Shown piece by piece: positions 1,133-55,816 of a stretch of DNA of 64,000 bases. The notes beneath the pieces are model-generated. The model saw nothing but the letters and a program-made list of their open reading frames with translations. It had not been told where the DNA came from and searched no databases. A program made the translations under genes and the position numbers. Every line of letters starts with the position of its first letter. Positions within the stretch are counted from its first letter, which is position 1. The stretch is from contig JACPII010000002.1 in assembly GCA_016188175.1 (NCBI GenBank), positions 4,865 to 68,864 of the forward strand. Reading direction: 5' to 3'. Origin of the DNA: Candidatus Woesearchaeota archaeon. GTDB lineage: Archaea > Nanobdellota > Nanobdellia > Woesearchaeales > JACPBV01.

Positions 1133-2437
1133 CTACGAAAATTTGCCTTTTTGCTTCGCCCAACTCTTCAGCCGTAATGCATTCAGCTTAATAAATCCGA
1201 CGGCATCGGTCTGGTCATAGCCGCCCAAAACATCCATGCTTGCGACCTTTTCATGGTAAAGAGATACGGGAGATGACCTTCCCGTTATAATAACGTTTCC
1301 TTTATAGAGTTTCAGGTTTACCGTTCCCGTAACATTCTCCTGCGCCTTGTCCATGACAAGCTTCAATAGCTCAAATTCGGGCGAATACCAAAACCCATTG
1401 TAGATGAGCGAAGCAAACTTGGGGATTAAGGAATCACGGATCTGCTTCACTTCCCTGTCCATCGTCAATCCTTCAATATCAAGGTGCGCCTGCATAAGCA
1501 CTGTCCCCGCAGGGGTTTCGTAAACCCCCCTTGATTTCATCCCGACAAAGCGATTTTCGACCAGGTCAACCCGGCCAATTCCATTTTTCCCGGCAATAGT
1601 GTTAAGATAGGTAAAAAGCTTCTGAGGGTCGGTGTAAGAAAGTTTATTTGTTTTGTCAATGAGCGTCACGGGAATCCCTTTTTCAAATTTGATAGACAGT
1701 TCGGTAGCCTTATCCGGAGCTTGTTCCGGGCTTGCGGTCATCTCAAACATCTCTTCCTTCGGCTCGAACGATGGATCTTCCAAAACTCCAGCCTCATAGC
1801 TGATGTGCATCAGGTTTGCATCTGAGCTGTAAGGCTTAGCTTGGGTCGCCTTGACCGGAATCCCGTTCTGCCCGCAAAAAGCGATCATATCCTTTCTCCC
1901 TTTGAACGCTGCAAGGAATTCCTTGTCTTTCCAGGGAGCGATGATTGTTGCATCCGGCAGAAGGGTGAGATACGCAAGCTCAAAACGCACCTGGTCGTTT
2001 CCTTTTCCTGTAGCCCCATGAGAAACAAAAGTTGTTTTCTCCTTCTTGGCTATCTCAACCTGTTTTTTGGCGATCAGCGGCCTTGCAAGAGAAGTCCCCA
2101 GAAGGTATTTGCCCTCGTACACAGCATTTGCCTTAAGGGCAGTAAAAACATAATTAGTGATAAACTCTTTCTTGAGGTCCTCGACGTACACCTTCGAAGC
2201 CCCGATCTTCAATGCTTTCTCTTTTGCAGCCTTAAAGTCCTCTTGCTGCCCAAGGTCGGCGATGTAGGCAACTGCTTCAAAGCCCTTGTCGATAAGCCAT
2301 TTCAGGATGACTGAAGTATCAAGGCCACCGGAATAGGCTAGTACTACTTTTTTGTTTGAAATGCAAACCACCCTTGCTTCATTTAGAAGAAGGTTTATAT
2401 ATAAAGGTATTGACCGAGCCCGGATAGAAATAGACAT
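1133..2437 (-). CDS. argG: Argininosuccinate synthase
   Basis: [20 protein letters not shown]-loop motif, full-length ~434 aa, in an arg cluster. Ends with tandem TAG TAG. Confidence 0.95.
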
Positions 2438-2456: not shown

Positions 2457-3299
2457 TTACACCAGCCCTTCCTTCTCCTCAAACCCCAGCGCCAGATTCA
2501 TATTCTGGACCGCCTGCCCTGATGCCCCCTTGACGAGATTATCCAGGACGGAAACAACAACGAGCTGGTTATTTTTGTCGATCTCAAACCCGCCGATTCG
2601 GCAAAAGTTGGTGTTCTGGACGCTTTTGATATCGGGAACCCCGTCCGTAACTATTTTTACAAAAGGCTTTCCCTCGTAATAACTCTCAAAGATTTGGATA
2701 ATCTTCTCTTTTGTCATTTTTTTTCCAAGCAGGATATGCGCCGTGCACATGATCCCCCTGAATGCCTGAAACACATGAGGCGTGAATGAGATTTTCGCCT
2801 TCAGAAACTGCTCAATCTCAGGCTTATGGCGGTGTTCGGTAAGCTTGTAGGCAACAACATTCCCCTGGAGCAGGGATGGATCCTTTGCATAAGCGCTCTC
2901 TTTCCCGGCCCCGCTCCAGCCGGAAATGCAGTCAAAGACAATGTATTTTGCAATCTTTTGGATGGGAAGCGAGCCAAGCAGGCAGGCGGTTGCATAACAG
3001 CCGGGATTTGCGATTATTCTGGCTTTCTTTATTTTCTCCCCATGCAGTTCAGGAAGCCCATACACTGCCGGATTTTTCTTGCCAGGAAATTTCGCCTGAT
3101 ATGTTGATTCGTAAGATTTTGGATGGGCAAAACGGAAGTCTGCGCTAAGGTCGATGATATGCGTGCAGGCTAGTTTCCCGGCGTACTCGAATGCAGCGGT
3201 AGGGGGGACTGCCAAGAAGATGCAATCCAGCCCCATCTTGTTTATTTCGGGAACTGAATAATTGGTGTACACCTCACTCCCCGCATATTCTGGATACAT
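2457..3299 (-). CDS. argC: N-acetyl-gamma-glutamyl-phosphate reductase (ArgC/LysY). The ORF as called is N-terminally truncated. The in-frame upstream codons (to ~3437) encode KRNVGIIGASGYTGFELIKIL (Rossmann motif) but contain no canonical start.
   Basis: ORF track plus manual translation of 3300-3476. Conserved catalytic region (NPGCYATA) in the called part. Confidence 0.85.
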   Translation of the reverse strand: MYPEYAGSEVYTNYSVPEINKMGLDCIFLAVPPTAAFEYAGKLACTHIIDLSADFRFAHPKSYESTYQAKFPGKKNPAVYGLPELHGEKIKKARIIANPGCYATACLLGSLPIQKIAKYIVFDCISGWSGAGKESAYAKDPSLLQGNVVAYKLTEHRHKPEIEQFLKAKISFTPHVFQAFRGIMCTAHILLGKKMTKEKIIQIFESYYEGKPFVKIVTDGVPDIKSVQNTNFCRIGGFEIDKNNQLVVVSVLDNLVKGASGQAVQNMNLALGFEEKEGLV

Positions 3300-3448
3300 C
3301 TCTTTTATTTTCTTCCCGGCATTGCCCGTGCTGTTAACAACTTTAAGGCTTACCCCTTTGTGTTTGGCCAGGATTTTAATAAGCTCAAAGCCCGTATATC
3401 CGGATGCCCCGATGATGCCGACGTTACGTTTTTCATTCTGCTTTCTCC

Positions 3449-3580
3449 GTATTTGTTTAGCACCTTCGAAATCCTAGACGATGAACCACAGGCGCTGCGT
3501 CCCCGTAAGGGACTTCCCCCCGCAACGCGCTCGCCGTCGATAGACAAAAGGATTTCGACCTTAGGGTGCTAAACAAATAC
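3449..3580 (+). mobile_element. Palindromic MITE-like element, family A-D copy A (TIR GTATTTGTTTAGCACC...GGTGCTAAACAAATAC, core CTGCGTCCCCGTAAGGGA). Fills the argD-argC intergenic spacer.
   Basis: Near-perfect ~40 bp terminal inverted repeats. About 90% identical in inverse orientation to 5943-6075. Confidence 0.6.
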
Positions 3581-3588
3581 CTCTCTCC

Positions 3589-4815
3589 TTATTCTGCGAC
3601 TGCCTCAAATGCCTGGTCAAGTATCTTTACGGCGATGTCCACTTCTTTCGTGCTGATGACTAGAGGCGGGAGAAAGCGCAGGTATACATCATTTACGCAG
3701 TTTACTAACAACCCGAGCTCAAGGCATTTCTCCGTAATTTTTCTATTTACGCAGTTTACTAACAACCCGAGCTCAAGGCATTTCTCCGTAATTTTTCTTC
3801 CAGGAATTTTCAATTTCATGCCAAGCATAAGCCCCATCCCGGAAACACTCTCGATGAACGGATATTTTTTCTTAAGCTGAGTGAGCTTTTCCTTGAAATA
3901 ATCCCCCGTTTTGGCTGCATTGCCCATAAGATTATGCTTCCTGATATATCCGATCGTCGCAAGCGCTGCCGCACAGCTGACGTTATTCCCGCCAAAGGTC
4001 GCTCCGTGGTCCCCGGCAGAAAAATCAATCCCTTTTTTTGCTATGCAGGCGCCAATAGGGATCCCATTTCCCAAGCCTTTCGCGGCGGTAACGATATCAG
4101 GAACAATGGCCTCGTGCTGGAAGCAAAAAAACTTTCCCGTCCTCCCATTTCCGGTCTGGACCTCATCAACGATCAGCAAAATATTGTGTTTTTTGCAGAT
4201 GCCCGAAACTTTTTTTAGGTAACCTTTTTCCGGAACTATAACCCCTGCTTCTCCCTGGATAGGCTCGATGATGGCAGCAGCGGTCTTTTCCGTAATCGCC
4301 ATTTCAATCGCACCGGCATCACCGTAAGGAACAAAAGAAAACCCGGGAACCAACGGCTCAAACTTTTTCTTAAATTTCTCTTTCCATGTCGCCGATAAGC
4401 TTCCAAAAGTCCTCCCATGGAATGCATGCTCGCAGCTTATGATGTCTGTTTTCCCGGTAAAAGCCCTTGCAAGCTTGAGCGCAGCTTCGTTCGCCTCCGT
4501 CCCCGAATTGCAGAAGAACGTTTTTTGAAGGCCCGAAAGTGCAGCAAGTTTTTTTGCCAGCTCAACCTGCGGCTTAGTGTAATAGAGATTAGTCACGTTG
4601 GTGACTTTTTTCACCTGCTGGGAAACAGCCCGAGAAACCTCAGCATTCCCGTGCCCGGCCGAAACAGTCGCAACCCCGCCGACGCAGTCAAGATATTTCT
4701 TTCCCTGGGAGTCCCAGACCCAAACCCCCTTTCCTTTTTCCAAAACAGCCGGATAACGGAGGTAACTCTGCATCAGATATTCTTTTTCCCCTTTAAATAT
4801 TGCATCCACGTCCAT
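3589..4815 (-). CDS. argD: Acetylornithine (or LysW-lysine) aminotransferase, class III PLP aminotransferase. Carries an internal in-frame 18-aa tandem duplication (RKITEKCLELGLLVNCVN x2).
   Basis: Class III aminotransferase motifs (GGVATVSAGHGN, PLP-Lys region DEVQTGNGRTG). Clustered with argC and argG. Confidence 0.9.
   Translation of the reverse strand: MDVDAIFKGEKEYLMQSYLRYPAVLEKGKGVWVWDSQGKKYLDCVGGVATVSAGHGNAEVSRAVSQQVKKVTNVTNLYYTKPQVELAKKLAALSGLQKTFFCNSGTEANEAALKLARAFTGKTDIISCEHAFHGRTFGSLSATWKEKFKKKFEPLVPGFSFVPYGDAGAIEMAITEKTAAAIIEPIQGEAGVIVPEKGYLKKVSGICKKHNILLIVDEVQTGNGRTGKFFCFQHEAIVPDIVTAAKGLGNGIPIGACIAKKGIDFSAGDHGATFGGNNVSCAAALATIGYIRKHNLMGNAAKTGDYFKEKLTQLKKKYPFIESVSGMGLMLGMKLKIPGRKITEKCLELGLLVNCVNRKITEKCLELGLLVNCVNDVYLRFLPPLVISTKEVDIAVKILDQAFEAVAE
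3691..3798. repeat. Perfect 54-bp tandem direct duplication (2 copies) inside the argD coding sequence
   Basis: 3691-3744 is identical to 3745-3798 (ATTTACGCAGTTTACTAACAACCCGAGCTCAAGGCATTTCTCCGTAATTTTTCT). Confidence 0.95.
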
Positions 4816-5942: not shown

Positions 5943-6075
5943 GTATTTGTTTAGCACCCTAAAGTCGAAATCCTTTCATCTACCGACGACGAGCGCGTCG
6001 CGGGGGGTTGTCCCTTACGGGGACGCAGCGCCTGCGGTGTATCGTCAAGGATTTCGAAGGTGCTAAACAAATACC
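5943..6075 (-). mobile_element. Palindromic MITE-like element, family A-D copy B (inverted relative to copy A)
   Basis: About 90% identity to the reverse complement of 3449-3580. Same TIRs. Confidence 0.6.
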
Positions 6076-12428: not shown

Positions 12429-12523
12429 GGGCTCGTAGCTCAGCCTGGTAGAGCACCTGGAGGGACGGAACCCTGGTGAAGCTTTTAACCAGGTCGTCGC
12501 GCGTTCGAATCGCGTCGGGCCCA
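12429..12523 (+). tRNA. tRNA-Lys(UUU) with a ~21-nt intron at a non-canonical position (immediately 5' of the anticodon loop). Mature length 74 nt.
   Basis: Manual fold. Acceptor GGGCUCG/CGGGCCC, D arm GCUC/GAGC with G18G19, T arm GCGCG-UUCGAAU-CGCGU. Removing AGGGACGGAACCCUGGUGAAG leaves anticodon loop CUUUUAA. Confidence 0.7.
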
Positions 12524-53582: not shown

Positions 53583-53779
53583 TTTTCAACCTCAATGGCG
53601 AAATCGGGGCAGAACTTTTCGCAGAGTTGGCACTTCGTGCACTTCCCCAACGACACGATCTCATTCCCTTTTATCATAAGGTCCTTCGCCGGGCAGATAT
53701 AGACGCAGATAGAGCAGAGCTTGCAATATCCCTTGATCCAGGTAAGGGGCCCCCCGATTTTTTTCTTTTCAGCTTCCAT
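53579..53779 (-). CDS. korD: 2-oxoacid:ferredoxin oxidoreductase delta subunit (2x[4Fe-4S] ferredoxin). ATG at 53779; a GTG alternative exists at 53791.
   Basis: Two CxxCxxCxxxCP motifs. Confidence 0.85.
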   Translation of the reverse strand: MEAEKKKIGGPLTWIKGYCKLCSICVYICPAKDLMIKGNEIVSLGKCTKCQLCEKFCPDFAIEVEK

Positions 53780-53847
53780 ATCAATAAACACTTGCGATAA
53801 ATATCAATAAACACTTGCGATAAATATCAATAAACACTTGCGATAAA
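53779..53847. promoter_or_regulatory. Three perfect tandem copies of a 23-bp unit (TATCAATAAACACTTGCGATAAA) abutting the korD start codon, in the divergent kor/thrS promoter region. Each unit carries a TATA-like TTTATTGATA on the kor strand.
   Basis: Read directly from the sequence. Confidence 0.6.
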
Positions 53848-53953: not shown

Positions 53954-55816
53954 ATGAGAATCCTCTTGCTGCACTCAGACTTTATCAAATTCCAGGCTGA
54001 AAAGCAGGCGATCAAAGACGCAGAAAAGATAGAAAAAGCAGAGCACGAGGTGCAGGAATGCCTCGTCGTCCTCACCTCTGTCGAAAAGAGAGACGAAAAT
54101 AACCCCGATGCAGTGATCAAAAGATATGCGAAAGAGGTTGATGATGTCGCAAAGCAGGTTAAGGCTGACAAGATTGTCATCTACCCCTATGTCCATCTGA
54201 CGACAGACCCTTCTTCCCCCCAGGCTGCCCTGCAAATCCTGAAATCGTGCGAAGAGGAGCTGAATAAGTCCTACAAAGTCACCCGGTCCCCTTTTGGATG
54301 GTACAAATCTTTTACATTAGCCTGCAAAGGCCACCCATTAGCCGAACTTTCAAGGGAGTTTGGCCCTGAAGAAACAAAAGAAGATGAGTCCCAGGCATTG
54401 AAGTCAGAGAAAAAGCTCGTCTCAAGCTGGTTCATCCTCGACACCGAGGGAAAGCTCCACGACATCGGAAAGTTTAATTTCAAAGGCCACGACAACCTCA
54501 GGAAGTTTGCTTTCTACGAAAAGGACAAGGACAGGACGATGACCCAGGAGCCTGCCCATGTTCCCTTGATGAAAAAATTGGAAATTGCGGATTACGAGCC
54601 AGGCAGTGATTCGGGAAATATGCGCTATTATCCCAAAGGGAGGCTTATCAAATCCCTTCTGGAAACCTACATCACGGAAAAGGTCATCGATTACGGCGGG
54701 GTAGAAGTGGAAACGCCCATCATGTATGACATGGCTCATCCGACGCTGTCAAAATACCTCCAGAGATTCCCCGCAAGGCAGTATAAGATTGAGTCGGACA
54801 AAAGAAACTTTTTTCTGAGGTTTGCAGCCTGCTTCGGCCAGTTCCTCATCGCCCACGACGCAACCTTGAGCTACAAAGACCTCCCCTTGAAGCTTTACGA
54901 GCTGACACGGTACAGTTTCCGAAGGGAACAAAGGGGCGAGCTTACCGGCTTGCGAAGATTGAGGGCGTTCACCATGCCCGACTGCCACGCTTTGGTCACC
55001 GGCCTCAACCAGGCAATAAGCGAATTCAAGCTCAGAAACAAGCTATGCTTCGATGTCCTTGAGAATGTCGGCATAAAAAAGGAGGATGTCGAACTTGCAG
55101 TCAGGGTGACGAAAGAATTTTATGAGAGCAACAAAGATATCGTCCTCGGCCTTGTAAAGGCGATCGGAAAGCCGGCTTTGGTGGAGATGTGGGACGAAAG
55201 GACATTCTATTTCATCCTGAAATACGAGCTTAACTTTGTTGACAGCCTGGACAAAGCATCGGCATTAAGCACCGACCAGATAGACGTCGAGAACGGGGAA
55301 CGGTATGACATCAAATTCACCGACAAAGACGGCCAGAGAAAGCATCCATTGATACTTCACTGCTCCCCCTCGGGAGCTATTGAAAGGAATATCTATGCTC
55401 TGCTGGAAAAAGCTGCGATGCAGCAAAAGCAGGGAAAGACCCCCTCATTCCCCTTATGGCTGTCTCCGACCCAGGTAAGGATAATCCCTGTCACTTCAGA
55501 GTTCACCGCATTTGCAGGACAGTTCGTGGACGAGATCGCCAAAGAGAACATCAGGGTTGACATCGACGACCGGGAGCTTCACGTCGGCAAGAAAATCCGC
55601 GAAGCCGAGATGGAATGGTGTTCCTTCATCCTGGTCATCGGAGAAAAAGAGAAGAACCTCCAAAAGCTCCCCATCAGGGTCAGAGGAAACAAAGACCTTG
55701 TGGAGATGGCCCTCAAAGACCTCATCGCCGAAATAAAAGAAAAGACTGCGGGCATGCCTTTCAAAAGATTGTCGCTGCCGAAAGAATTGAGCCGAAGGCC
55801 GGTGTTTGTCGGGTAG
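53954..55816 (+). CDS. thrS: Threonyl-tRNA synthetase, archaeal type with the N-terminal archaea-specific editing domain
   Basis: Class II core motifs, archaeal N-terminal domain. TATA TTAATATAC ~25 nt upstream (leaderless). Confidence 0.92.
   Translation: MRILLLHSDFIKFQAEKQAIKDAEKIEKAEHEVQECLVVLTSVEKRDENNPDAVIKRYAKEVDDVAKQVKADKIVIYPYVHLTTDPSSPQAALQILKSCEEELNKSYKVTRSPFGWYKSFTLACKGHPLAELSREFGPEETKEDESQALKSEKKLVSSWFILDTEGKLHDIGKFNFKGHDNLRKFAFYEKDKDRTMTQEPAHVPLMKKLEIADYEPGSDSGNMRYYPKGRLIKSLLETYITEKVIDYGGVEVETPIMYDMAHPTLSKYLQRFPARQYKIESDKRNFFLRFAACFGQFLIAHDATLSYKDLPLKLYELTRYSFRREQRGELTGLRRLRAFTMPDCHALVTGLNQAISEFKLRNKLCFDVLENVGIKKEDVELAVRVTKEFYESNKDIVLGLVKAIGKPALVEMWDERTFYFILKYELNFVDSLDKASALSTDQIDVENGERYDIKFTDKDGQRKHPLILHCSPSGAIERNIYALLEKAAMQQKQGKTPSFPLWLSPTQVRIIPVTSEFTAFAGQFVDEIAKENIRVDIDDRELHVGKKIREAEMEWCSFILVIGEKEKNLQKLPIRVRGNKDLVEMALKDLIAEIKEKTAGMPFKRLSLPKELSRRPVFVG

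Follow-up and report, generated by a model that had tools for sequence, protein, structure and literature searches.

A perfect 54-bp in-frame tandem duplication in argD of a Candidatus Woesearchaeota genome assembly: a putative private allele or an assembly error

The duplicated unit in argD

The window, by which the whole stretch of 64,000 nucleotides analysed here is meant, is part of contig JACPII010000002.1 (positions 4,865 to 68,864, forward strand) of the metagenome-assembled genome (MAG) GCA_016188175.1 of a Candidatus Woesearchaeota archaeon. Near one of its ends lies argD, a gene for an acetylornithine-family aminotransferase dependent on pyridoxal 5'-phosphate (PLP), in which a unit of 54 nt, coding for 18 residues, is present twice, head to tail and without a single difference between the copies. 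The gene and the two copies, numbered in coding order, are as follows.

3589..4815, minus strand: argD, acetylornithine-family class-III PLP aminotransferase; 408 aa, or 390 aa without the duplication
3745..3798, minus strand: copy 1, ArgD residues 340-357, RKITEKCLELGLLVNCVN
3691..3744, minus strand: copy 2, ArgD residues 358-375, RKITEKCLELGLLVNCVN; the native downstream DVYLRFLPPL is kept

The duplication had been described in a sequence-only reading of this DNA as perfect, in frame and 18 residues long, and this was borne out by Tandem Repeats Finder, which reports positions 3691-3798 with a period of 54, 2.0 copies, 100% matches and 0 indels, as well as by the codon phase of the unit, which begins at phase 0 of the argD open reading frame (ORF). 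A separate repeat search of the window recovered the same two copies. The 54-mer occurs twice in the window, with up to three mismatches permitted, against 0.00 expected from 100 shuffles, and the only perfect tandem duplications in the window with a unit of at least 9 nt are this 54-mer, one 9-mer and one 23-mer array.

The array is exactly 108 nt long, and neither flank extends it by even one base. Read on the coding (minus) strand, AAAATTCCTGGA is followed by two units, each running AGAAAA...GTAAAT, and then by GATGTATACCTG, while the junction between copy 1 and copy 2 joins CTGCGTAAAT to AGAAAAATTACG. Comparison of the unit ends with the flanks (AGAAAA against GATGTA, and GTAAAT against CCTGGA) reveals a blunt junction with zero microhomology. 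The 64-kb window contains no N, and hence none separates the copies; neither a hairpin nor unusual DNA stability was detected at the duplication site (z = +1.4).

The identity of the gene, also proposed from the sequence, is confirmed by the NCBIfam model TIGR00707 (acetylornithine/succinylornithine family transaminase), which matches the ORF over its full length with 468.5 bits, above the cut-off of 410, the match being broken into two stretches by the insert. In aminotransferases of this kind, the PLP and substrate roles are held by the Schiff-base Lys in AKG, the Asp of DEVQTG and the C-terminal Arg of LRFxPPL. Across 119 aligned sequences, D217, E218, Q220, R380, P383 and L385 are invariant and K246 is near-invariant, and all seven are present in the window ArgD. 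As had been noticed, the repeat stands just before the LRFLPPL strand: after copy 2 the protein continues D376-V-Y-L-R380-F-L-P-P-L, which places R380 four residues beyond the repeat end.

The closest solved relatives are the acetylornithine aminotransferases (AcOATs) 2EH6, 2ORD and 1VEF, with 38-44% identity, and the Foldseek template-modelling (TM) score of the ArgD model is 0.94-0.95 against 2ord, 7nn1 and 1vef. The window ArgD thus resembles the AcOAT ArgD proteins of known structure (2EH6, 2ORD, 1VEF, 7NN1) in its match to TIGR00707, its fold, its invariant residues and its place in an arginine cluster with argC and argG, but differs from them in the exact repetition of an 18-residue hairpin of helix and strand, which is found in 0 of 118 homologues. 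By all tests run, ArgD is an ordinary member of its family as judged from sequence and model, and acetylornithine (or LysW-linked) transaminase activity is putative for either allele.

Residue for residue, the protein equals GenBank MBI2575594.1, encoded on a 95,895-bp contig of the Candidatus Woesearchaeota MAG, where its neighbours are MBI2575592.1, MBI2575593.1 and MBI2575595.1. Beyond its own population, the next homologues are DPANN archaeal proteins with about 60% identity, and a scan with ArgD of the GTDB genomes, whose representatives do not include the source genome, likewise gave a top match of 60% identity (Woesearchaeota, Iainarchaeum). The genes argD, argC and argG are clustered, all on the minus strand, and their surroundings are listed below.

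1133..2437, minus strand: argG (argininosuccinate synthase), downstream of argC; MBI2575592.1, with Pfam Arginosuc_synth found on the identical product of a Logan contig
2457..3452, minus strand: argC (N-acetyl-gamma-glutamyl-phosphate reductase) in its GenBank extent; MBI2575593.1, 331 aa
4898..5887, minus strand: dihydrodipicolinate-synthase-family gene, upstream of argD; MBI2575595.1

Predicted effect on the enzyme

The structure was modelled with and without the insert and orthologues were aligned, as the sequence-only reading had proposed. The alignment has one copy of the unit in each of the 118 homologues. The AlphaFold model of the single-copy allele, built with 118 aligned sequences, has a mean predicted local distance difference test score (pLDDT) of 96.3, and for the 408-aa protein the mean is 92.4. 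In the single-copy model, the unit consists of a helix (340-348), the strand residues 351-352 and 354-355, and the following turn, and it is located between the strand 330-335 and the strand 360-363, which bears the invariant Arg.

In the 408-aa model, copy 2 takes the native positions of helix (356-366) and strand (369-373) with high confidence, while copy 1 is looped out with a short helix, and its residues 343-354 are the sole segment with a pLDDT below 50. This placement follows the input alignment, in which 2124 homologue residues lie beneath copy 2 and 118 beneath copy 1, and therefore does not count as independent evidence.

Support of an independent kind for the tolerance of the insert comes from natural insertions in homologues. 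The spacing between G332 and R380 is 29-30 residues in 113 of the 118 homologues and 47 in the window protein, and five homologues have extra residues at the same loop, which connects the GLMIGxEL strand with the helix and is variable in length: P0096 has 5, P0106 has 6, P0027 and P0064 have 14 each, and P0054 has 39. The insertions of P0027, P0054 and P0064, which are proteins of DPANN type, are 14-39 residues long relative to residues ~336-358, rich in Asn, Lys and Glu, and of low complexity.

The sequence-only reading had placed the duplication in a conserved segment. The duplicated residues are indeed conserved; the net effect, as far as alignment and model can tell, is nevertheless that of 18 residues inserted at the indel-tolerant loop of the family, with the invariant residues intact. 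In the model, copy 2 would hold the native helix-strand position beside Arg380 of the catalytic site and copy 1 would form a surface loop, and the 408-aa enzyme is probably folded and possibly active.

A comparable outcome is known from phage T4 lysozyme, in which helix duplications made in the Matthews laboratory reportedly left one copy native and the other extruded as a loop; AlphaFold likewise predicts one native and one looped-out copy in the window ArgD. Short in-frame duplications have been reported as selected in bacterial ribosomal protein genes (PMC8758062), and the event in the window resembles them in being in frame and recent. It differs from both precedents in that the window allele is putative and has no known selective agent or phenotype, and in that its structure is modelled only.

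The population and the haplotype

Single-copy variants, predicted by the sequence-only reading, do occur in this population, in five assemblies made independently. These are Logan contigs from five runs; their identity to the window is 99.7-100%, and each spans the site with a single unit.

L001, run SRR12113385
L002, run SRR12113433
L063, run SRR12113422
L064, run SRR12113431
L070, run SRR12113421

The runs with near-identical Logan contigs span SRR12113385 to SRR12113433, a range of accessions presumably assigned to the project PRJNA640378; SRR12113421 is tied to this project by co-mention in another paper. The MAG itself appears to belong to the same study, for which the supplementary tables gave no confirmation. 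Two relatives outside these runs, L068 (93% identical, ENA) and L069 (80%, GCA_964386515.1), also carry one copy each.

Exact look-up of the 408-aa product matched no Logan contig and returned the GenBank copy only, an absence that is not informative, since an assembler working at k=31 is unable to traverse a 54-bp tandem repeat. A junction-spanning query of 84 C-terminal residues retrieved no fragment with the junction, and the 43-aa C-terminal product that a k=31 graph cut at the repeat would leave had no match in an index that does not hold such cut products. All 10 exact look-ups, made with the 390-aa single-copy protein of the window type, N-terminal pieces ending at 349/350 and C-terminal fragments, were negative, as were both positive controls (the cut products of L063 and L065). 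In the JGI metagenomes, a collection without this species, a 36-nt core of the unit had 0 matches. Within argD, the population SNPs (single-nucleotide polymorphisms) comprise 5 synonymous and 3 non-synonymous changes, too few for an inference about selection.

The window agrees with the sister contigs at 99.8-100% identity outside positions 3421-3631, and inside this interval there are three differences: a divergent patch, an inserted miniature inverted-repeat transposable element (MITE) with a target-site duplication (TSD), and a 5-bp duplication. They are listed here with the second copy of the element.

3581..3631, minus strand: divergent patch at the 3' end of argD, ~14 substitutions in 51 bp relative to the sister haplotype
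3449..3580, no strand assigned: MITE copy A in the argD-argC spacer, 132 bp, TSD of 8 bp CTTTCTCC/CTCTCTCC
5943..6074, no strand assigned: MITE copy B, oriented opposite to copy A, perfect 8-bp TSD CTTTTTGT
3421..3430, minus strand: 5-bp tandem duplication AACGT AACGT in argC codons 3-5, present only in this assembly

The patch changes the C-terminus of ArgD from ILYQAFHESGG in the sister haplotype to ILDQAFEAVAE in the window. The window version resembles that of the relative L068, which argues that it is a genuine allele and hence that the haplotype is real; judged from its sequence, the patch is probably a short recombination tract.

The element is short and non-coding, ends in terminal inverted repeats (16 nt, perfect, GTATTTGTTTAGCACC), is flanked by TSDs and occurs in multiple copies, as is characteristic of MITEs. 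Copies A and B agree at 120 of 132 positions, have a GC-rich core that looks palindromic, and bracket argD together with the dihydrodipicolinate-synthase-family gene. A composite transposon made of the two copies was considered and rejected, as each copy has a target duplication of its own. Copy A (3449-3580) ends 110 nt from the 54-bp repeat, the distance given in the sequence-only reading. Its site is empty in L001, L002, L070, L071, L072, L068 and L069, and the argD-argC spacer without the element measures 12 bp in the contigs of the same species and 12-14 bp in the two relatives.

Three contigs, L063, L064 and L065, start within MITE copy B, from which it follows for L063 and L064 that the window haplotype is shared upstream. 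Both L063 and L064 stop at 3632, one base short of the first haplotype-specific SNP at 3631.

In argC, the 5-bp duplication throws the ATG at 3436..3434 out of frame, as seen in alignments and in three-frame translation, so that canonical initiation is lost on this haplotype. GenBank places the start at an ATA (3452..3450) inside the end of the MITE, with a protein that begins MRRKQNEKRNVG, while the intact sister allele encodes 324 aa and begins MKNVGIIGASGYTG. Going by the sequence, either this haplotype may lack a functional argC or the 5-bp duplication may be a further local error of the assembly.

Some further observations were made on the contigs and on the rest of the window. In L069 (positions 4001-5172 of contig CAYLSU010000049.1), argD is split into ORFs of 313 aa and 64 aa by a 1-nt frameshift near residue 304, and its span of 1172 nt is 2 mod 3; this is either a second damaged argD in the clade or a sequencing error. 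Positions 1-18 of L001 (GATGTGTATAAGAGACAG), which we take to be a match to the Nextera transposase adapter, are non-genomic, and the apparent divergence of this contig from the window from 5919 onward is therefore an artefact. At 53778-53847 of the window, three perfect 23-bp units (ATATCAATAAACACTTGCGATAA) stand head to tail directly upstream of the apparent start of a small Cys-rich ORF (ATGGAA, minus strand, ~53777), in the gap before a plus-strand gene at 53954, and this array is possibly a regulatory repeat or a case of uncertain copy number in the assembly. At 12429-12523 on the plus strand, Rfam finds a tRNA of 95 nt with 47.2 bits, while ARAGORN finds no tRNA in the window; this is probably an intron-containing archaeal tRNA.

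Possible origins of the duplication

The reading given most weight here, at about an even chance of being right, is that of a genuine, very recent and private in-frame allele, carried by a single sub-lineage within a population of groundwater Woesearchaeota in which the single-copy allele is the normal one. The copies show zero divergence and the sister strains differ by ~0.1% elsewhere, which dates such an event after the strain split. It would have been a single event of replication or repair that copied 54 bp head to tail and left a blunt junction, and the filling-in of a staggered double-strand break with subsequent end joining, the logic by which transposon target duplications arise, would be a likelier route than slippage between short direct repeats. 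Small tandem duplications that arise from filled-in break termini have been shown in eukaryotic cells (PMC8355091). With such TSD-type fill-in, the window shares a blunt head-to-tail duplication and an active-looking MITE family with 8-bp TSDs 110 nt away, but 54 bp is far more than the 8-bp TSD of the MITE, and no element is found at the junction. Slipped-strand mispairing between short direct repeats, independent of RecA, is commonly regarded as the most frequent route to short tandem duplications in prokaryotes; here, however, the microhomology that it leaves as a footprint is absent, with no base common to unit ends and flanks and an array of exactly 2.0 copies, and the site offers no hairpin or unusual stability. 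Slippage is thus largely refuted by the blunt junction and is considered very unlikely. Whatever its route, the duplication would have no function of its own and would be selectively neutral or slightly deleterious; it may be retained if the MITE and the frameshifted argC start have relaxed selection on the operon.

Several points weigh against a real allele. The duplicated form is on record in one assembly only, the GenBank MAG, and the five near-identical contigs from five other runs have a single unit, such that the allele would need to be dominant in one sample and rare in five others. L063 and L064 end at the haplotype-specific SNP, with no branching of the graph at the unit, which indicates that the window-type 3' haplotype probably co-occurs without the duplication. 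The model of the 408-aa protein speaks for compatibility and is not proof. The junction is free of microhomology, and zero-microhomology junctions are unusual among spontaneous tandem duplications in prokaryotes. Finally, for pipelines of the kind in question, sequence duplicated where scaffolds are joined and repeats with a wrong copy number are documented (PMC7111523).

An artefact of assembly or scaffolding is accordingly a serious contender, although its chance is put at somewhat less than even. Overlapping contig ends would have been joined without full trimming, or a local mis-assembly would have added one unit, and the true ArgD would be single-copy with 390 aa. All independent assemblies that cross the site (L001, L002, L063, L064, L070) are single-copy, as are L068, L069 and the 118 homologues, and perfect identity with a blunt join is the exact outcome of blind concatenation. 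The site is flanked by two clusters of SNPs (3874/3877, and 3631 onward), the repeated MITE is 110 nt away, and short-read graphs fragment in this region, as the ends of L063 and L064 at 3632 show. IDBA presumably trims negative-distance joins blindly. In the probable source project, a study of Californian groundwater (He et al. 2021; PRJNA640378, PMC7906910), 150-bp paired reads were assembled per filter with MEGAHIT 1.2.9 at default settings, MEGAHIT contigs were scaffolded with IDBA-UD and bins were curated, and read-level error correction is not described. Duplicated stretches at scaffold joins, wrong repeat numbers and locally unsupported sequence recur in MAGs (Chen et al. 2020, PMC7111523), and the window resembles the reported cases in having a perfect duplicate in a single assembly, in a strain-variable region beside a repeat, and in the IDBA-UD scaffolding of its probable pipeline.

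The resemblance to these errors is incomplete, and it is here that support for a real allele is found. Scaffold ends of metaSPAdes are said to overlap by n-1, which equals 54 at k=55 (PMC7111523), but the reported assembler is MEGAHIT at default settings, and 54 is neither k nor k-1 for any value in its k-list of 21-141. Overlaps at the ends of contigs are given as maxK with MEGAHIT, as maxK-1 with IDBA_UD and, in another source than that which gives n-1, maxK for metaSPAdes, and 54 fits none of the overlaps of the reported pipeline. The repeat boundaries do not coincide with SNP position ± (k-1) for the MEGAHIT k values and the known population SNPs, and thus lie at a k-mer distance from no known variant. 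The documented errors contain Ns, while no run of Ns separates the copies in the window. A contig from a de Bruijn graph needs reads that bear the junction, so an error would have had to arise at the scaffolding step. An in-frame length, with its chance of one in three, and an insertion in the most indel-tolerant loop would both be coincidences if the duplication were an artefact, and within ~400 bp the same haplotype bears two more disruptive changes, namely the MITE and, in argC, the duplication of 5 bp. What is expected of a k-mer-overlap artefact was therefore found in part: the duplication is absent from independent assemblies, but the overlap length and the Ns do not agree. The sequence-only reading had spoken of an artefact in a repeat-prone region, and the artefact stays a live option although the site itself is not repeat-prone, with a unit that is unique and DNA of no unusual structure. 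Its three readings, that is, a very recent event, an assembly artefact and a population polymorphism, are all supported as live options.

An adaptive elaboration, in which the extra helix-strand unit was selected because it alters oligomerisation, partner binding or substrate range of ArgD and stands at an early stage of the longer loop insertions, would be in keeping with the in-frame position in a loop where relatives have 5-39 extra residues and with the intact catalytic residues. However, the copies are undiverged, no second lineage has the duplication, and it is absent from sister strains of the same aquifer; the natural insertions are unrelated low-complexity sequences and not duplications of helix and strand, copy 1 is modelled as disordered, and the damaged argC start on the same haplotype argues against selection for better arginine synthesis. 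This explanation is given almost no credence, less even than slippage.

As an event, or as an error, the duplication is of an ordinary kind, and with either outcome the knowledge of ArgD and of duplication mechanisms is unchanged. If it is an artefact, MBI2575594.1 is overlong by 18 residues, and public MAGs contain one more uncorrected local error. If it is the genuine private allele considered above, it would be a clean, small example of an in-frame duplication of a secondary-structure unit that segregates in a conserved enzyme. A wider interpretation, which is rated as unlikely, holds that three fresh lesions on one haplotype (the MITE, the 5 bp duplicated in argC and the 54 bp duplicated in argD), next to intact sisters in the same aquifer, represent a loss of arginine biosynthesis in progress in a DPANN archaeon, and that the ArgD loop is seen acquiring insertions by duplication of the adjacent helix and strand. 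Taken with the MITE and the argC frameshift, a real duplication would give a hint that, in one strain of an episymbiotic archaeon, arginine synthesis is in the course of decay.

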